DNA of 64,000 nucleotides from contig OY282360.1 in NCBI GenBank assembly GCA_958295675.1, positions 195,580 to 259,579 on the forward strand, given 5' to 3'. Of the stretch, positions 3,972-54,527 are shown one piece after another. The position numbers and the translations under genes were made by a program. Below the pieces are notes generated by a model. That model was not told where the DNA came from. It ran no database searches and worked only from the letters and a program-made list of their open reading frames with translations. The stretch is from Minisyncoccota bacterium. Its GTDB lineage: Bacteria; Patescibacteriota; Minisyncoccia; Phycocordibacterales; JABAAK01. Numbering within the stretch: position 1 is the first letter of the stretch; each line of letters opens with the position of its first letter.

Positions 3972-4766
3972 GTGAACACATCATTCCTTATGACAACAGT
4001 ATTGCTGGGAGTTGCCGTATTCGCGGAATTCGCAGCAGGCGATACGAACAGGATGCTTGTACCGGGTACGGTGCATGCCGAATCGGGAGAATCAAAAGGG
4101 TTGTTCAACACATCCTACAAATACATCTCTAGCATGCCAAAACCGAGGGAAAACGGTCTATCGCTTCTGTTTGCTGATAGCAGGCGGAATAAGATGATCG
4201 GTCTGCAAATCGGTCTACCGGACGGTCTTTTCATCGTGGGTGGCTATATGCCGAGAGAGAATTTTTTCGGTCTCAGCAGAGGATACGGTGATATCACCAG
4301 ATTCGGTGTGGAAGCGGGAAGTAAGAAACTCTCCGTGAAACTCGTGCATGAGCGCGCCGACGGTGAAGACATCATTGACGAGGCGAACGGCACCGCTTTG
4401 GAAGTCGCTTTTCGGAAGAAATTCTATCCGGTATCCGGTATGAGTTTCGATTTCTCCATGACCGCGCAACAATTTCTCGGCGGTGATGTGAAGACTGAAT
4501 TCGGTTTTTGTCACAGGATGGAACCGAGCGAGATGAATCTGCGGACCAATGTCGCCATCAAGACCAAATTGAGCAATAGGATTTCTTTTTCGGCGAACGC
4601 GAAGCATGACATCATCAGCGGGCGGAATGCACGCGACACAAAAGTGCGTACCAAATTCAGTATTATGATGAACGAATTTCTTTCGTTCAGAATTAATACA
4701 AGCAACCATCTGCGCGGTCGTGAAAATCGTTTCAGCGCAAATGTTCAGATTATGGTGCGGGCATAA
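3972..4766 (+). CDS. hypothetical secreted protein
   Basis: GTG start 6 nt after GGAGGT. Signal peptide MNTSFLMTTVLLGVAVFAEFAAG. Beta-rich composition. Terminator immediately downstream. Confidence 0.5.
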   Translation: MNTSFLMTTVLLGVAVFAEFAAGDTNRMLVPGTVHAESGESKGLFNTSYKYISSMPKPRENGLSLLFADSRRNKMIGLQIGLPDGLFIVGGYMPRENFFGLSRGYGDITRFGVEAGSKKLSVKLVHERADGEDIIDEANGTALEVAFRKKFYPVSGMSFDFSMTAQQFLGGDVKTEFGFCHRMEPSEMNLRTNVAIKTKLSNRISFSANAKHDIISGRNARDTKVRTKFSIMMNEFLSFRINTSNHLRGRENRFSANVQIMVRA

Positions 4767-5086: not shown

Positions 5087-5169
5087 ACACAAAAAGTATA
5101 CCACAGGTGTGCCGCGTATTATCCACAACACCACCTCGTTTTTGTTTTTCCGTTGCACACTGAATATAT

Positions 5170-5583
5170 ATGCGCAATGCGGCACTTATAAAAATCAGCA
5201 CTCTTTGTGCGTTTATTCTTATTGTAATGTTGCTCTTGACGATGCATATTTCCGCTCAGACATCTCAGACAGCAAGAACAAATCCGAGAAATGCGATTGC
5301 ACCGTGCGCGGTCGGTTATGCAGCCACAATCAAACAGGACAGCAGCAATAGAATATACCTCACCTGTACAGCAGTCAATAGTGTGCTCATACAAGGATCA
5401 ATTAATTCAGATACAGAATGTAACAGCAATAACATACTTGGAAGAAAGCAGACAGACAGCACCGTGCAACTTGATTGCGTATCAACTTCCGGTGTGAAAA
5501 CAACACCGCGAGGTGACTGTTCAAATGGACAGTATGTGTATGGCATCAAAAGTGACGGCACGCCGTTGTGTCGGTCGTTTTAA
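5170..5583 (+). CDS. small secreted cysteine-rich protein
   Basis: Signal peptide (ISTLCAFILIVMLLLTMHISAQT). Eight Cys in the mature part. Confidence 0.45.
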   Translation: MRNAALIKISTLCAFILIVMLLLTMHISAQTSQTARTNPRNAIAPCAVGYAATIKQDSSNRIYLTCTAVNSVLIQGSINSDTECNSNNILGRKQTDSTVQLDCVSTSGVKTTPRGDCSNGQYVYGIKSDGTPLCRSF

Positions 5584-7508: not shown

Positions 7509-7766
7509 TCAGGAGCATTGCCAGTAGAGATATACCCGTTTTTCACATTCAGGGCTTCTCCACAGCGGTCTTGTTGATTTAAGCAGTAGATATATAATAC
7601 ACAATGTATGGAAGAAGAAGGAGAAAACGGTGGATTGCGCTCAATTGAGCGGTCAAATTTGCGCGGTGCGCAGGATAGGAACGGTTTGCGGAAAAGACCG
7701 GCGCAGCAGCAACGACGGCGTGCACCGGCAGCGCAGCCGAGGCGTACTGTCAGAAGAAAGAGTCCT

Positions 7767-9032
7767 ATGAAAAGAATAATTATTTTTTCCGTTATTATTT
7801 TTGTAATTGTTCTTGTTCTTGTGACTACCACATTCGCGACTACCACACTTCGTTTGACGCTCACTAGCGCAGAACTTTCAGTTGACGGGGTATTCTCTGC
7901 AATCCGAGAACCGGCGCAATCAGCGGATATCGCGTACGGCAAGGTCGGTCCGTACACTGAAACTCGGTCGGCAACAATAACAAACATAACAAGAGAGCGG
8001 CAGAACAGCTATGCTGAAGGCACCATCATGGTGCATAACACGAATACATCCGGTGAGAAACTTGATTTAGTGAATCGGACGCGGTTTCAGACAAAAGACG
8101 GCAGAATATACCGGCTGAGCGGCAAACAGATTATTCCCGGCGGCAAGACCGTGAACGGCGAATTTGTGCCGGGCAGAAAAGAAGTGAGAGTGGTGGCCGA
8201 TGCTATCGGTAATGAGTTTAATTTAAAGGAGAAAGGAGTACGATTCACCATTCCTGGTTTGGCGAAGTACAAGGAGTTTTCATCCTCATACGCTGTTTCA
8301 ACGACAAAGATTGTAGGCGGCTTCAGCGGTGAACGGTTTATTCCCGATGCAGCGGAAGAAAAGGCGGCGCGGGAGAAACTGCGCGGAGACATCGCATCCG
8401 CTTTGGAACAGAAACTTACAGAAGCACTGCAGACCAACACACTTTCAAAGAAGATTGTTTTTGACAGCGCGAAATTTATCACATACGAGTCGCTGGAGAA
8501 TAAACAGGTTGACGATGCGGTGATGATTCAGGAAAAAGGTGAGATGTACGCGGTTTCGTTCAGGGAGACGGAACTTGCGTCTTTGCTCGCGAAATCCGAG
8601 AGTATGTCGGTCGGCGTGCCGAGCTCGGTGACACCGACTGAGGTGACAGTGGTGAATCTGGCAATGGAAATGGTTGACGCGAATGAGTTTGAAGTGACCA
8701 CATCAACTGAGTTTGATTTCCGTCTGTCCGGTGTGGCGAAAGTGTACTGGACGGTGGACGAAGTGCTATTCCTGGGCGACATAGCCGGTAAGAAGAGGAT
8801 TGAGGTTGAGGATATTATTCTTAACCGGTATCCGCAGGTGCAGAAGATTAATGTGTTCTCAATCTTCCCGCCGTGGCGGACAAGCGTACCCGGCAACAGG
8901 AAGAAAATCAATGTTACCGTGGGATACAGCAGAGGGGATGAGCGACAGGAAATGCCGCTGACTGGCGACAGGGAGGAAGAGGAGGAAAAGACAGAAGAAG
9001 AGAAAGAAGAAGGGGAAGATCAGGAGGAATAA
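7767..9032 (+). CDS. hypothetical membrane-anchored protein with acidic C-terminal tail
   Basis: Start MKRIIIFSVIIFVIVLVLV (TM). C-terminal EEEEKTEEEKEEGEDQEE. The ORF is open from 7608 but the upstream part is Arg/Gln-rich and unlikely to be coding. Confidence 0.5.
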   Translation: MKRIIIFSVIIFVIVLVLVTTTFATTTLRLTLTSAELSVDGVFSAIREPAQSADIAYGKVGPYTETRSATITNITRERQNSYAEGTIMVHNTNTSGEKLDLVNRTRFQTKDGRIYRLSGKQIIPGGKTVNGEFVPGRKEVRVVADAIGNEFNLKEKGVRFTIPGLAKYKEFSSSYAVSTTKIVGGFSGERFIPDAAEEKAAREKLRGDIASALEQKLTEALQTNTLSKKIVFDSAKFITYESLENKQVDDAVMIQEKGEMYAVSFRETELASLLAKSESMSVGVPSSVTPTEVTVVNLAMEMVDANEFEVTTSTEFDFRLSGVAKVYWTVDEVLFLGDIAGKKRIEVEDIILNRYPQVQKINVFSIFPPWRTSVPGNRKKINVTVGYSRGDERQEMPLTGDREEEEEKTEEEKEEGEDQEE

Positions 9033-9764: not shown

Positions 9765-10898
9765 ATGGCGTTTTCAGATTTATTCTCATCGATAGGCTCA
9801 CTGTTTTCCGGCGGCAGGGCTGCCGCGGTCGGTATTGATATCGGCTCATCTTCGGTGAAGATAGTGCAAATACACAAAGAAAAAGGGGCGGCAGTTCTGG
9901 ACACATACGGCTCGCTGGCGATAGGTCCGTATGTGGAAAATGCTGAGATAGGACAGTACACGAACGCGAGCGAGGAGGTACTGCATACGGTACTCACGGC
10001 ACTGATAAAAGAGGCACAGATCACCGCGACCTCGGTTTGCGTGTCAATTCCGTTTCATTCAAGCTTAATATCGCTTATTGATGTACCGCCGCTGAGTGAC
10101 GAAAAAATAGCACAGGTGATACCGTTTGAAGCGAAGCGGTACATACCGGTGCCGCTTGAGGATGTATCCATTGATTGGTTCGTGGTGCCGAAGGCACTGC
10201 TGGACCGCGATGACATGTCATTGTTCCATAAAGATAAACCGACCGCGATGCCGGCGAAAGAAGAAAAGCGGAAAGTGCTGCTAATCGCTATCCATAATCA
10301 TGAGCTTTTGAAGCACAAAAATATTCTCAGCCGAACCGAACTGAACACGAAATATTTTGAAATTGAGATTTTCAGCACACTCCGGTCCTCAGTATACGAA
10401 ACTCGCCTGCCCATCATCCTTATTGACATCGGTGCCCGCACCACAAAGTTTTATATAGTTGACCACGGCATTATTCTTCGCTCGCTGTTTATTAATCAGG
10501 GCGGACAGTCAATAACGCAGGCAATAGTACATGCCGAGAACATACCGTTCAAAGAAGCGGAGCATAAAAAACGGGAACTCGGTTTTGACATACCGGATAA
10601 AAACACAAAAGAGGCGATGGCTCTCGTGACGGACGAAATGTTTTCCGAAGCGAATAACGCGATTGTTGATTTTGAGCAGCGCTATCACCGGTCTATTTCA
10701 AAAATTGTACTGACCGGCGGCGGTGCGGTGATGAAGGGGATATTGGAAGAAGCGAAGAAAAAAACTAATATAGCGGTTGAAATGGCAAATCCATTCGGAC
10801 GATTACGGCATCCGGCATTTCTCAGTGATGCTCTGAAAGAATCAGGATCTGAATTTGCCGTGGCGGTCGGCAGTGCCATGCGCGCTCTAAATGAGTGA
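9765..10898 (+). CDS. pilM: type IV pilus assembly protein PilM (actin-like ATPase)
   Basis: N-terminal AVGIDIGSSSVKIVQI motif, 377 aa, followed by pilN/O/B/T/C genes. Confidence 0.85.
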   Translation: MAFSDLFSSIGSLFSGGRAAAVGIDIGSSSVKIVQIHKEKGAAVLDTYGSLAIGPYVENAEIGQYTNASEEVLHTVLTALIKEAQITATSVCVSIPFHSSLISLIDVPPLSDEKIAQVIPFEAKRYIPVPLEDVSIDWFVVPKALLDRDDMSLFHKDKPTAMPAKEEKRKVLLIAIHNHELLKHKNILSRTELNTKYFEIEIFSTLRSSVYETRLPIILIDIGARTTKFYIVDHGIILRSLFINQGGQSITQAIVHAENIPFKEAEHKKRELGFDIPDKNTKEAMALVTDEMFSEANNAIVDFEQRYHRSISKIVLTGGGAVMKGILEEAKKKTNIAVEMANPFGRLRHPAFLSDALKESGSEFAVAVGSAMRALNE

Positions 10899-11228
10899 AT
10901 ATGGCGGTTATAGAACAGATTTTTCACCATTGACCGGTACAAATAATTAAAGTACCATGATGTATAGGTGAGCAAAATGGGGTGTGTGGTGTGCAGCCCG
11001 CCCTCCGTACAATTCTTCCGATCCGGCTGTTTAGCCTCACTCTTACGTTTGAAGGGGACGAGAGATGAGAAGAGACCTGCACCGAACAGAGAAGCGATCA
11101 TATGCCGTCTCTGATGATCGTGAAAGAAGGGAGGGAAGCGGTAATACGGTTTACCACCTCTTTTCCCGTGAATCGGAGGACTCACCTCATCCCGCACAGG
11201 ACTACGGTCTTGTGCGGGATTTTCTTTT
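10899..11228 (+). other. GC-rich noncoding segment ending in a Rho-independent terminator (candidate structured RNA)
   Basis: No + strand ORF of at least 60 aa across ~440 bp. Local hairpins (gatcat..atgatc; cctc..gagg). Terminator cccgcacagg-actacggtct-tgtgcggg plus T-run at 11191-11228. Confidence 0.25.
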
Positions 11229-11338
11229 GCGTGATTGATACCATATTGCACACAGTTCAAACGATACGAATTCGGTAAGTTAACCACATAGCGCATTCAT
11301 GGTTCTTTTTAATCGGTATACTACACATATAGTACGAT

Positions 11339-12007
11339 ATGTTACCAACCTTTTCAAAGAATCTCGGCAAGAGTTCAAGCGATATTTCACTCTCGGCATC
11401 ACAGAAGCCGCAGGATTTCGGTTCGGAAAGCGGTCACTCGGTCAAGAAAAAAAGGGATATACGGACTGTCCTCTCTGTTATAATATTTATTTTCACCTTA
11501 CTCGCGGCAGGTACGGTATTCGGTCTTAATTTCTATCTGGATGCCCGCATAGCGAATATTGAGCGGCTTTTGGTGCAGCATGAGGAGGATATTCAAATCG
11601 CCACGATAGAGAGTTTAATTCGGTTTGATCAGGGTATTGATGCGCTGAAGGTGCTGATTGACTCGCGTGCCGGATACCGCGCGGTAATAGATGCCATGGC
11701 AAGTATTATCATACCGAATGTGCGATACTCAAGCGCGAGTATTGAGCTAAATGAGAATGAGGAATACCGAATTGTTATAAACGCGACCGCTCGTTCTCTC
11801 AATGCGTACCGTCAGCAGGTGGTGACAATCCGCTCGCAGGAACCGACCAATCTAATGAGAGGCGTGACTATCAAAAACTACACCATAGAAAAAGGCGGAG
11901 ATAATAGCGCGACGGTCTCATTTGAGATGGAAATACAGGTACCGGTCGCCGCCGCGGTTCAGTCAAGAAATGGGGTTACGACGGAACAGACCAATCAACA
12001 AGCATAG
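11339..12007 (+). CDS. PilN-like pilus assembly protein (single TM plus coiled coil)
   Basis: TM helix VLSVIIFIFTLLAAGTVFGL followed by a coiled-coil/periplasmic domain. Positioned after pilM. Confidence 0.55.
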   Translation: MLPTFSKNLGKSSSDISLSASQKPQDFGSESGHSVKKKRDIRTVLSVIIFIFTLLAAGTVFGLNFYLDARIANIERLLVQHEEDIQIATIESLIRFDQGIDALKVLIDSRAGYRAVIDAMASIIIPNVRYSSASIELNENEEYRIVINATARSLNAYRQQVVTIRSQEPTNLMRGVTIKNYTIEKGGDNSATVSFEMEIQVPVAAAVQSRNGVTTEQTNQQA

Positions 12008-12010
12008 CGT

Positions 12011-12571
12011 ATGGTAAGTAATTTTATTCCAATTATCCTACTACTTCTGCTTTCCGCAGTACTATACGCGGTATTCATTTCACCGCAGTACGGCGACGCA
12101 AAAGCGCGGTTTAATCACATAACGGAACTGGAGGAGGCACTGTCACACAGCGACCTGCTTCAGGAGCGCAGAGATGAACTGCTCGCCCAGAAAAACAGTA
12201 TTCCGCAGGAACAACAGAATCTCGTAGACAAGCAGGTCGCGGAATACTCGTCAGAGTCAGTGGTAACATTCATATTGTCGCTCAATAACCTGCTGCTCAA
12301 CAGCGGTTTCGGCGGTGATGAATATATCATCGGTGCTGAACAAAAAGACCTTGACGGCATTGTGCTTATTCCGATAACATTCAATTTTGAAACCGTAGAA
12401 TACGCGGAAATACTGAGATTTATAGGCGTACTTGAGAATTGGGAGCGGGGCATACGAATTGTTTCAATTCGAATAAACACATCATCCGAGGAGCGTGATG
12501 CCGATTCAACCCGCGTGAACGCTGTTGTGTTGATAGAAGCGCTTTTTTCTGAAGAGGGTGCGGTACAATAA
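12011..12571 (+). CDS. PilO-like pilus assembly protein
   Basis: N-terminal TM IPIILLLLLSAVLYAVFI and a coiled coil. Operon position. Confidence 0.5.
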   Translation: MVSNFIPIILLLLLSAVLYAVFISPQYGDAKARFNHITELEEALSHSDLLQERRDELLAQKNSIPQEQQNLVDKQVAEYSSESVVTFILSLNNLLLNSGFGGDEYIIGAEQKDLDGIVLIPITFNFETVEYAEILRFIGVLENWERGIRIVSIRINTSSEERDADSTRVNAVVLIEALFSEEGAVQ

Positions 12572-12582
12572 TTGTAAGGAAT

Positions 12583-13113
12583 ATGACAAAAGAGCAATTA
12601 AAATCAATGATCATTTTCCTGGTACTGCTTGCTGTCACGGCGTATGTTGCGCACGCATTCGCGGTAGAGTCAGAAAAAAAATTTGAAACGATTGAATCAC
12701 AATCAACAACATTTCTTGATTTGATTGATCGGTTAAACAATGTTGAATTCGATCTTGAATTTGTCAGATCATTTACCGGATCAGGTTCCGCGGCGCGTAC
12801 GCGTACGGAGCCGGGTGCAGTTGCGCGCGTGCCGGAAAATCAAGTTGGAAGGGTAAATCCGTTTTCAGACACGATAGAACCGCTGACTCAGCGGAGCAGT
12901 TTTACCAATTCGCCATTGAATGAGAATCAAAATACAGCGGTCAGAAACTTTGAGAGCGCGTTCCTGAGCGCGGTTGAGGATCTCACCACTCAGACGGAAC
13001 AGGAAGCCGAAGATGAAACCGAAACTGAAACTGAAACTGAAATCAAAACTGAAATCGAAACCGAAGCCGACCAATCGCCTCCGCAGCAGCAAGCACAAAC
13101 CTTAACATTATAG
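12583..13113 (+). CDS. hypothetical pilus-operon membrane protein with acidic ETE repeat tail
   Basis: N-terminal TM. C-terminal ETETETETEIKTEIETE low-complexity region. Confidence 0.45.
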   Translation: MTKEQLKSMIIFLVLLAVTAYVAHAFAVESEKKFETIESQSTTFLDLIDRLNNVEFDLEFVRSFTGSGSAARTRTEPGAVARVPENQVGRVNPFSDTIEPLTQRSSFTNSPLNENQNTAVRNFESAFLSAVEDLTTQTEQEAEDETETETETEIKTEIETEADQSPPQQQAQTLTL

Positions 13114-34308: not shown

Positions 34309-34452
34309 AATTCGTTCAATAAAAAAATTCCCCAAGCACACGGTGCTATGGAATTGATCAACTTGCAATGTAAGAGTATTATTGACAATAAATATTATAT
34401 ATTATAAAATATAGTCAGATACGGATGTTCAACACCAACAGGAGGGTTGATA

Positions 34453-34797
34453 ATGGGCGTGCGGATAAAACGAAGGAATGACGGCAGAGAAGAAATTCTT
34501 TGCCGATGTGATCATCCCGGATGCGGCAAAACTGCATCCAGGATTAGCGGTGAAATAACCCGCTATTGTCAAAGGACCGGCGAGTATATAACATACTCAA
34601 GAAACCCTGTCAAACCGTTTCCATACTGGAAAAAAGTGTTTAGGAATGGCGGCAAAAGAAGCAGCAAGTTTATGTTGTATGACAGGAAAGGAGAACAGAG
34701 GCGGGTATGGACCGATGATGTATCCGCTTACTGCCTTGAACACGAATATATTTCGCCGTCAGTACAACATACCGGATGGGAATGGCTGAATAATTAG
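34453..34797 (+). CDS. small Cys/His-rich protein with CDHPGCGKT motif (paralog A)
   Basis: Strong promoter TTGACA-N17-TATAAAAT at ~34383-34412, RBS AGGAGGG. Paralogous to the 34918 ORF. Confidence 0.5.
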   Translation: MGVRIKRRNDGREEILCRCDHPGCGKTASRISGEITRYCQRTGEYITYSRNPVKPFPYWKKVFRNGGKRSSKFMLYDRKGEQRRVWTDDVSAYCLEHEYISPSVQHTGWEWLNN

Positions 34798-34917
34798 CAT
34801 GACCGTCTGCATCGCGCACTCAGTGCGCGATGTTTTTTTATAGTGTAAAAATTTGCAAAAATATTTTTTATACTGTACAATTTCTATTACCCGATAAACA
34901 CCAAGGGAGGGATAAAT

Positions 34918-35319
34918 TTGAGTGTTGAGTTTTCTCTTAACGAGGATTCTGGGGAGGGTGAAATTTCCTTTTCCTGCGACCAACCGGGTTGTAGGAGAAC
35001 GAGAATTTCTTCTGTTGTTCAAGTGGAGGCCGCCAACGCTGTTTCTGTGTCAAGCGAACTTCTTCGCTCTTACCAGGAAGTTTTGCGCAGGCCGCCGGAT
35101 ATCCGTGATACATGTCACGGATTGAAAGATAGACGGCGGAGGGTCGTCAGGTTTCACTTGTTTCCTGTTGATGGGTTTACTGAGCACAATTGCTGGCCAA
35201 ATCATGTCCGGGTGATGTGTGACGGCTGTTTGCGTGCAAGTAAGAAAGCAGTTTCGGTCAAAAGAGGAAACGGACGGACCCAAAGGAGGAACGGACGTCG
35301 AGACCGCAGACACCCATAA
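34918..35319 (+). CDS. small Cys/His-rich protein with CDQPGCRRT motif (paralog B; TTG start)
   Basis: Promoter TTGCAA-N17-TATACT at ~34846-34875, RBS GGGAGGG. Basic C-terminal tail. Terminator downstream. Confidence 0.45.
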
Positions 35320-35359
35320 GTAAGGAACCACAAGAAGTTCCGGCTAACACAGCAACAAA

Positions 35360-35396
35360 ATGCTGCACATGTTCGCATGTGCAGCATAATTTTTTA
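35360..35396 (+). terminator. Rho-independent terminator ATGCTGCACATG-TTCG-CATGTGCAGCAT plus T-run
   Basis: Perfect 12-bp-arm hairpin followed by TTTTTTAT. Confidence 0.7.
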
Positions 35397-36801: not shown

Positions 36802-36861
36802 GAATAGTACGCATCATCTCACGGTACTTGCGCTTCCTTGCAAATTTTATATACTACATGC

Positions 36862-37199
36862 ACCCAAGCGGGTAATCGCCCGCGAAACAAAAAGTTTCAT
36901 GGGAGGAAAGTCCGGACACTCCCGCACCGAAATTCGGCGCGGAGCAGGGCAGCGGGTAACACCCGTCCGCCGAAAGGCGAGGGATGCGAACAGTGACGCT
37001 CAACCCGAGAGGGAAGAGTGCCTCTCCGAGGCAAACGCTATGGCGACATGGCGATGAAACGGCTAAATTCCTGTCCGGGTGCAAGGCCGTGCCGCGACTA
37101 TTTTTTAGTGGCGGAGTGCCGCATTGAGGATACCGGCGACGGTATTCCCAGATAAATGATTACCGCCTTCGGGTACAGAATCCGGCTTATAACTTGGGT
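36862..37199 (+). ncRNA. rnpB: RNase P RNA, bacterial type A
   Basis: P4 5' strand GAGGAAAGTCCGGACACTCC, AGGGCAGCGGGTAAC, GCAAGGCC. P4 3' strand ACAGAATCCGGCTTATAAC. P1 pairing ACCCAAG/CTTGGGT. Terminator follows. Confidence 0.8.
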
Positions 37200-37209
37200 C
37201 AAATGGAAA

Positions 37210-49699: not shown

Positions 49700-49746
49700 C
49701 AATGTAAAAAAGAAAGGGCTACCTTGTCGGTAGCCCTTAACAGGGT

Positions 49747-50130
49747 TCAACGGCAACCCCTGTTCACATCCCAGAACAGGTAGCCCTGATGCTGCCTACC
49801 GTTCAGACCGGGATGTTCCGGATCAAAGTAGTGGCGAAAGACAGAGTGCTGGTATTGCGCCGGCGTCCACTCCTGGGATGCCGACTGTACTGGCATTTCA
49901 ACTCCATGGACCATCTGTGTCGGGGTGTCCTGGATGAAGTAGGTCATTGCCGCACCAGCCGCAAACGCAAGGACACCGACCATCGCCGACGCCAAAACGG
50001 AACTACGCGCACCACTACGACTAGCCGGCGCAGGTGCCGGATCTTGATCAGACGAAGCCATCATTACCTCCTGGGTTTGTTGAGAAAAAGCTCCAAATAG
50101 AAGTATAGTATACCTTTGTGGATTGAACAA
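49747..50130 (-). CDS. hypothetical membrane-anchored protein
   Basis: Pro/Ala-rich N-terminus, one TM (VLASAMVGVLAFAAGAAM). Start may be MMASSDQD near 50064. Confidence 0.35.
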   Translation of the reverse strand: MFNPQRYTILLFGAFSQQTQEVMMASSDQDPAPAPASRSGARSSVLASAMVGVLAFAAGAAMTYFIQDTPTQMVHGVEMPVQSASQEWTPAQYQHSVFRHYFDPEHPGLNGRQHQGYLFWDVNRGCR

Positions 50131-50316
50131 GATATAAGAAATTAATGTGGAAAACTAATTAATAGAATAATTAAATGCAACATATTCAATGCAGATATTT
50201 ATACAGGGAAGCAAAAAATATTCAGTAAAATAAAGAGAAAAATGTAAGATATAGTTGACAAATACACCATTTTTATATATTATAGATACTAGGTTCTTTC
50301 AACAAAGGAGGTCACT

Positions 50317-54111: not shown

Positions 54112-54251
54112 AATCATTGACAAAATTATTTCTTTTGATAAAACAAATATTCTATTGCGATTATGCGAAACATTTGATACTATACCAGTGGGTAACGATT
54201 ACCCGTCCGTGACAATATCACCTTAGCAGGTCAACAGAGGAGGACAGGAGG

Positions 54252-54470
54252 ATGCAGGAGAGTGGAACGATGCGGCAGCATGATGGAGAAGAGCGGGAAG
54301 ACATGTCGCTGTTGGACATTGGATTCATAAGCCGGATCCGTCAGCAAATAAGGGGGCTACAAACTCACGGTATCACAAGCAGGCATCGTGATTACCGGTT
54401 GAAGCGGATGGCATACAGATTGGAAGATTTGCTGTGGGATATCAGGCATGATAAGCCCGTGATGCACTAA
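54252..54470 (+). CDS. hypothetical small protein (72 aa) with own promoter, RBS and terminator
   Basis: Promoter TTGACAAAATTATT..TAAAAC at ~54117-54148. Palindrome GGGTAACGATTACCC. RBS AGGAGG 5 nt before the ATG. Terminator at 54492-54527. Confidence 0.4.
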   Translation: MQESGTMRQHDGEEREDMSLLDIGFISRIRQQIRGLQTHGITSRHRDYRLKRMAYRLEDLLWDIRHDKPVMH

Positions 54471-54491
54471 CAGCCGATTCCGCACATCAAG

Positions 54492-54527
54492 CCCACCGTG
54501 TGTACAAGAGACATACGGTGGGTTTTT
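54492..54527 (+). terminator. Rho-independent terminator
   Basis: CCCACCGTGTGTACAAGAGACATACGGTGGG plus TTTTT. Confidence 0.7.

Follow-up and report, generated by a model that had tools for sequence, protein, structure and literature searches.

Type IV pili are thought to be used by CPR bacteria for contact with their hosts and for DNA uptake, and streamlined genomes are expected to shed DNA that has no use. Intrinsic terminators consist of a GC-rich hairpin with an immediate U-tract; they share the orientation of the upstream gene, on whose strand the hairpin is more stable, and they are usually found within a few tens of nucleotides past the stop codon. Small RNAs that derive from 3′ untranslated regions (3′ UTRs), or that share the terminator of an mRNA, form a general class known from enterobacteria. 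Here we analysed a long gap within a type IV pilus gene cluster of a Candidatus Kaiserbacteria-like genome from the CPR (Patescibacteria), contained in a stretch of DNA of 64,000 nucleotides, referred to as the window, to which all positions refer unless a related locus is named. The gap, at 10899-11338, holds nothing more unusual than an intrinsic terminator, which sits in non-coding DNA inserted specifically in this lineage. Its elements and its two flanking genes are the following.

9765-10898, plus strand: pilM, encoding 377 aa (Pfam PF11104 PilM_2, E 4.9e-39).
10899-11277, no strand: non-coding insertion, about 379 nt long, lineage-specific and absent from relatives; its right boundary is approximate.
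11189-11229, plus strand: Rho-independent terminator with a 14-bp stem (11189-11202 / 11207-11220), the loop CTAC and the tail TTTTCTTTT.
11278-11338, plus strand: ancestral pilM-pilN spacer, the putative promoter region of the PilN-like gene, which aligns with the short spacers of relatives.
11339-12007, plus strand: PilN-like gene (222 aa), an open reading frame (ORF) and the first gene of the downstream unit.

The identity of the cluster as one for type IV pili follows from the PilM_2 domain and from downstream ORFs of 649, 361 and 398 aa in one orientation. Along its full length, PilM shares 69-77% of its residues with PilM proteins from Kaiserbacteria and Paceibacterota MAGs; its C-terminus, which ends in ALNE before the stop codon, matches ALGE or ALEE at the same place in the alignment with relatives, and the neighbours of pilM in these relatives carry T2SSE/MshEN domains. 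The names PilN and PilO, on the other hand, are assigned by position, and in the case of the PilN-like protein also by one N-terminal hydrophobic segment, since Pfam gives no PilN match for this 222-aa protein. The N-terminus MLPTFSKN is common to the gene that follows pilM in four of the related loci (L003, L004, L005 and L008). None of the three genes after the gap (11339-13113; 222, 186 and 176 aa) has a Pfam match, the sole match of the PilN-like protein at E ≤ 1e-5 in a word-indexed database is itself (P0124), and the 176-aa protein ends in an acidic repeat (ETETETE/KTEIETE). The proteins of the pilus alignment complex are very fast-evolving here. Upstream of the cluster, a 474-aa ORF (7608-9032) encodes a protein whose N-terminus is very basic and whose C-terminus is poly-acidic (EEEEEKTEEEKEEGEDQEE), with a single hydrophobic segment, and it has no Pfam match either. 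Syntenic ORFs without Pfam matches occur in relatives, for example L006 1011-2330 (439 aa) and L011 670-2271 (533 aa), which are likened to it by size and position.

The stop codon of pilM lies at 10898 and the next co-oriented start at 11339, leaving a gap of 440 nt in surroundings that are otherwise tightly packed, as the other pil genes nearby are separated by 3 to 60 nt. These features had been recorded in a preliminary description of the same DNA, together with the absence of ORFs of at least 60 aa in the coding direction and with an AT-rich stretch ahead of the PilN-like start. Both of these also hold: the longest plus-strand ORFs of the gap have 48, 57 and 58 aa, and the GC content falls to 0.37 at 11225-11374, past the terminator. 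However, the gap does not form the GC-rich island that had been claimed, given that its GC content is 45.7% against 48.6% for the window, with 52.5% in its core (10966-11228) and 0.45-0.59 in the flanking genes. The several local inverted repeats of the same account are present, albeit short (8-15 nt, 77-92%), but they do not confer a fold stability above background once the terminator is left out. The earlier observation is therefore partly confirmed, the gap and the terminator being real and the GC-rich island and special structure not. Its interpretation is likewise partly supported, in that a real terminator lies between pilM and the other pilus genes.

Three further gaps in the window, at 46860-47386, 49700-50316 and 54112-54497 (386-617 nt), lack both an ORF that scores as coding and an Rfam match, so that the gap between pilM and the PilN-like gene is not unique there. 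Another region, of 1070 nt (34309-35378), has no ORF of typical codon usage; it does hold two ORFs, 34447-34797 (116 aa) and 34918-35319 (133 aa), with a common Cys motif (CDHPGCGKT and CDQPGCRRT, respectively), and these perhaps encode small zinc-binding paralogues of foreign origin.

Among the terminator-like sites in the first 20 kb of the window, the hairpin at 11189-11220 is the strongest, and it is located 290 nt past the stop codon of pilM and 110 nt ahead of the ATG of the PilN-like gene. Eight of its 14 stem pairs are G-C, its loop has 4 nt, and its fold on the plus strand has a stability of −26.9 kcal/mol, with a z of −8.6. The U-rich tract TTTTCTTTT starts directly 3′ of position 11220 and extends to about 11229; the canonical terminator previously placed at 11191-11228 was thus correctly recognised, with limits that we adjust slightly. 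On the minus strand, where one G-U pair of the stem becomes a C-A mismatch, the hairpin reaches only −21.7 kcal/mol, that is, about 5 kcal/mol weaker, and is followed by GAGGTGAGT, which has no U-run. The weaker fold together with the missing U-tract indicates that the terminator is unidirectional and belongs to the plus strand. A similar hairpin is found in the same genome directly after the gene ending at 4766. We infer that the predicted terminator is functional; the transcript that reads into it is most likely that of pilM, which it probably ends. No other functional element can be recognised in 10899-11277, and the body of the insertion appears to have no function of its own.

Twelve related loci, among them ten syntenic pilM loci with a PilM identity of 69-77%, were available for comparison, and they were obtained by a scan of genome contigs (n = 3), a scan of metagenome contigs (n = 1) and look-ups of PilM homologues (n = 7). 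The segment 10899-11295 is absent from 12 out of 12 (nhmmer at E ≤ 10, blastn at E ≤ 1), which is the outcome named in the preliminary description as speaking against its candidate RNA; nevertheless, the nearest relatives compared are only 69-77% identical in PilM, and an RNA confined to the genus would escape such a comparison. A contig of the same species (838 bp, 99% identity) reaches no further than the 5′ part of pilM, and look-ups of the exact sequences of PilM, of the PilN-like protein and of P0124 gave no match. Searches of phage and plasmid collections in a distant mode yielded no match to the insertion, and three 24-28-mers taken from it, used as exact or degenerate patterns, gave 0 matches among viral contigs.

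The spacers between pilM and pilN are 54-66 nt long in L003, L004 and L005, and they align only with 11278-11338 of the window, from which it follows that a lineage-specific insertion occupies the gap from 10899 up to about 11277. The gap therefore consists of two parts, an insertion of about 379 nt (10899-11277) followed by an ancestral spacer of about 61 nt (11278-11338). Spacers of the short type lack an equivalent of the terminator of pilM, their single motif match being a 6-bp stem in L003 that overlaps the start region of pilN.

The junction between pilM and pilN is a hot spot for rearrangement and insertion among these relatives, as three cases indicate. First, the spacer of L008 (4126-4438) has 313 nt, a GC content of 69% and repeat units, for example CATCGGTGACGGTCGCGGTCGGT and ACACACCGTCACCCACACCCGTCCG, that are unrelated to the insertion in the window; only its last 50 nt or so match the promoter-proximal part of the gap. 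Second, in L002 (5096-6482) an ORF of 400 aa is inserted on the opposite strand between pilM and pilN, and its C-terminal half, judged by eye, looks like a trypsin-like serine protease; a terminator with a 17-bp hairpin (5140-5179, −30.3 kcal/mol) lies there between the convergent genes. Third, in L013 (4132-4390) pilM is detached from the pilus cluster and followed by argS. In L006 and L007 (4159-6030), pilM is also detached, and what follows are small ORFs, a gene for a NYN-domain protein and a gene for a cadherin-like protein of more than 1500 aa.

The conserved part of the gap, 11278-11338, aligns with the spacers of L003, L004 and L005 in their entirety and, in L008, with the 3′ end of the spacer, and across this alignment GTTAACCACA, a TATACT box and the start ATGTT / ATGTTACC are kept. 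In the window, TATACT occupies 11317-11322 as a −10 box, with the PilN-like ATG 16 nt further on; the same box is present in L003, L004, L005 and L008, with a distance to the ATG of 16-17 nt in L003, L005 and L008. We infer that this box is the promoter of the PilN-like gene, whose mRNA would then have a very short leader. Similar arrangements occur throughout the window, where 139 TAYAMT hexamers were counted: such hexamers are located at most 40 nt upstream of 16 start codons, an enrichment of about 7-fold over what is expected from the share of sequence involved. Among these genes are the PilN-like gene, pilT and pilM, each with a box of the TATACT type 9-16 nt before its start codon, which in pilM is a TATACT box 11 nt ahead of the ATG. 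Across the window, −10 boxes of the TATACT/TACACT type lie 0-22 nt before starts, for example those at 2897, 7593, 9748, 11317, 15114, 18827, 31575, 45389 and 52677. Since −10 boxes are so close to the starts, and since Shine-Dalgarno sites are rare in this genome, mostly leaderless mRNAs, or mRNAs with very short leaders, are suggested; our literature search found no work on leaderless mRNAs in Patescibacteria.

What we observe, namely the hairpin, the lack of coding signal and of homologues in the gap, the absence of the insertion from relatives and the conservation of the −10 box, is best explained by an unconserved insertion that ends in the terminator of pilM and is followed by the own promoter of the PilN-like gene. 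We hold this reading with somewhat more confidence than doubt. According to it, transcription from the promoter of pilM would run through an untranslated tail of about 290 nt and stop at the hairpin (11229), such that pilM would be effectively monocistronic, with a long 3′ UTR. The genes pilN, pilO, pilB, pilT and pilC would be transcribed separately, starting at about 11329, just past the terminator, and further internal promoters, for example before pilT, could also serve the downstream pilus genes. A 3′ UTR of 290 nt is long for a streamlined genome of about 0.7 Mb, and for this reason the body of the insertion may have some function. At most, the arrangement means that an acquired terminator has uncoupled the transcription of pilM from that of the other pilus genes in a Kaiserbacteria-like genome. 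The promoter layout is a general by-product of this analysis, which helps to annotate transcription units in CPR genomes.

The alternative that survives best deals with the origin of the insertion, and is therefore compatible with the explanation just given. The insertion would be the relic of a gene or a mobile element that was lost from between pilM and pilN and decayed past recognition, the terminator being left over. We consider this rather unlikely, even if a decayed gene or element is a plausible origin given the unrelated inserts that the same junction holds in L002 (the 400-aa ORF with its terminator) and in L008 (the repeat spacer). The position of the terminator would fit the 3′ end of a former unit on the plus strand, and the minus strand has a long open frame:

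10685-11296, minus strand: ORF of 203 aa, absent from the preliminary description, that extends across the gap and into pilM for 214 nt, rejected as a gene.

Inside the gap, this frame is free of stops for 132 codons, which was seen in only 1% of dinucleotide shuffles. However, protein comparisons do not point to any ancestor. A concatenated translation of the gap in six frames had 0 matches at E ≤ 10 among 5.8 billion clusters, and tblastx of the gap against the window and the related loci gave nothing. An exhaustive HMMER search of the minus-strand ORF against 1.84 billion representatives returned 3 weak matches, all of them within the portion of the ORF that is antisense to pilM. A 12-nt inverted repeat near the ends of the insertion (10949-10960 / 11297-11308) seemed to favour a mobile element, but its right arm sits in the conserved ancestral spacer and hence is not the end of an element, which makes a MITE bounded by this repeat improbable. 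Moreover, the sequence occurs as a single copy in the 64-kb window, and no target-site duplication is seen. The earlier suggestion of a decayed gene thus fails in what concerns protein similarity, of which there is none in any frame, although such a gene may still be the origin of the insertion.

A somewhat more doubtful alternative is that the insertion contains an orphan, lineage-restricted gene for a small RNA of about 210-270 nt, with a promoter of its own, which would act in trans or on the expression of the pilus genes. Several features are in line with this: the terminator is strong and orientation-specific, and it lies 290 nt past the nearest stop codon; the gap is devoid of coding signals; 380 nt of non-coding DNA have been kept in a reduced genome, which hints at function; and candidate −10 elements are present in the insertion, as follows.

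10930-10958, plus strand: weak sigma-70-like match (TTGACC-17-TACCAT, 9 of 12 positions), a possible promoter.
11008-11013, plus strand: TACAAT, the sole TAYAMT match inside the insertion, from which a transcript reaching the terminator would measure about 210 nt.

These matches do not exceed chance. Sigma-70-like matches were as frequent in shuffled sequence (7.2 expected, 9 found), and the one at 10930-10958 is therefore no evidence by itself; TACAAT at 11008-11013 may also be a chance match, considering the number of such hexamers in the window. As for structure, the whole segment, including the terminator, has a fold z of about −3.6 on the plus strand and about −3.2 on the minus strand, the former mostly because of the terminator hairpin. 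Without the terminator, the segments 10960-11188 and 11005-11188 have z values of −1.8 and −0.8, respectively. Both values are inside the background given by 116 random windows of 229 nt (mean z −0.73, sd 1.37, 20% at or below −1.8), from which we conclude that the body of the gap is not unusually structured. For the RNase P RNA, used as a control, z was between −2.8 and −4.8.

Comparison with known RNA families leads to a similar conclusion. Using Rfam 15 on the whole window, no family matched in the gap at its gathering score, and ARAGORN found no tmRNA; the proposal that the gap might encode 6S, SRP or tmRNA accordingly finds no support. The best matches below threshold, at E ≤ 10 within 10700-11500, were RAGATH-25 with 19.6 bits (gathering score 49) and sR17, a model of an archaeal snoRNA, with 19.0 bits (gathering score 36). 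These are unrelated families at chance level. The same scan did detect four tRNAs and the RNase P RNA (118 bits). The latter is a bacterial class A RNA at 36860-37205 on the plus strand (gathering score 100), several helices of which are shortened or missing with respect to the consensus; such shortening is typical of a reduced genome. A novel structured RNA, as had also been proposed, is supported neither by fold stability, which is within background without the terminator, nor by conservation, as the segment is absent from the 12 loci. Furthermore, no homologous sequence turned up in any related locus or collection searched. Finally, the duplexes predicted by RNAduplex with 21 neighbouring gene starts were no better than those of shuffled sequences, of which 21 out of 24 were at least equal. 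The most specific version of this idea seems less probable still, namely an orphan RNA of about 210-270 nt with a promoter near 10930-11013 and an end at 11229, restricted to the Kaiserbacteria lineage and perhaps modulating the pilus genes. If the orphan RNA were nonetheless real, it would join a very short list of regulatory RNAs that have been suggested in CPR bacteria.

Very improbable, in our view, is an attenuator or riboswitch within a single operon from pilM and pilN to pilC, which would tune read-through into the downstream genes. It is true that the terminator stands between co-oriented genes of one functional cluster, and that an alternative pairing (11064-11078 with 11177-11191) touches the terminator stem; however, this pairing overlaps only the first 3 nt of it, no riboswitch family matches in the gap (Rfam, E ≤ 10), and the terminator is 110 nt away from the ATG. 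Moreover, the conserved −10 box between the terminator and the start of pilN would make the downstream genes independent of read-through, and its position downstream of the terminator implies that the latter closes the pilM unit rather than lying in a leader. The relatives with spacers of 54-66 nt, which lack an equivalent terminator after pilM, show in addition that this is not a conserved feature of the cluster. The earlier suggestion of an attenuator that sets the stoichiometry of pilM:pilNOBTC is therefore unlikely.

The weakest alternative is a gene for a small protein, encoded either by the 203-aa ORF of the minus strand or by the following ORF.

10977-11114, plus strand: ORF of 45 codons with AGGTGA 5 nt upstream and a codon score of −0.19, rejected as a gene.

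The codon score, a log-odds measure trained on the long genes of the window, has a value of +0.27 ± 0.13 in true frames (5th percentile +0.03), and is +0.01 or lower for every ORF of the gap. The plus-strand ORF has in its favour AGGTGA before the ATG at 10977, a promoter-like match upstream and a terminator downstream, and the minus-strand frame its 132 open codons, but the scores of both (−0.19 and −0.04) fall outside the range of true genes, neither has homologues or a Pfam match, and the longer one would overlap pilM by 214 nt, so that we find hardly any room for this possibility. Regarding the 45-codon ORF, a Shine-Dalgarno-like sequence carries little weight in a genome where such sites are rare. 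At −0.039, the 203-aa ORF scores lower than any of 519 true windows of 130 codons, a value typical of stop-free wrong frames, and its amino-acid composition is atypical.

When compared with known systems, the gap resembles 6S, SRP and tmRNA in approximate size and in its non-coding nature only, and differs from them in having no covariance-model match at E ≤ 10 and in a fold stability that does not rise above background. The likeness to small RNAs derived from 3′ UTRs is that here, too, a stable RNA could arise from non-coding sequence that separates a stop codon from a terminator; unlike in those, there is no sign of an internal promoter, a processing site, conservation, seed-target pairing or unusual structure. 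Closest are the intrinsic terminators, with which 11189-11229 shares the GC-rich hairpin, the immediate U-tract, the co-orientation with the upstream gene and the greater stability on that strand. It departs from the usual case in its distance of 290 nt from the stop codon, across a lineage-specific insertion. The locus can also be compared with type IV pilus clusters subdivided by internal promoters, as boxes of the TATACT type precede pilM, the PilN-like gene and pilT, that of pilN being kept in relatives. In contrast to the relatives that retain pilN, however, an extra terminator here visibly divides pilM from pilN.
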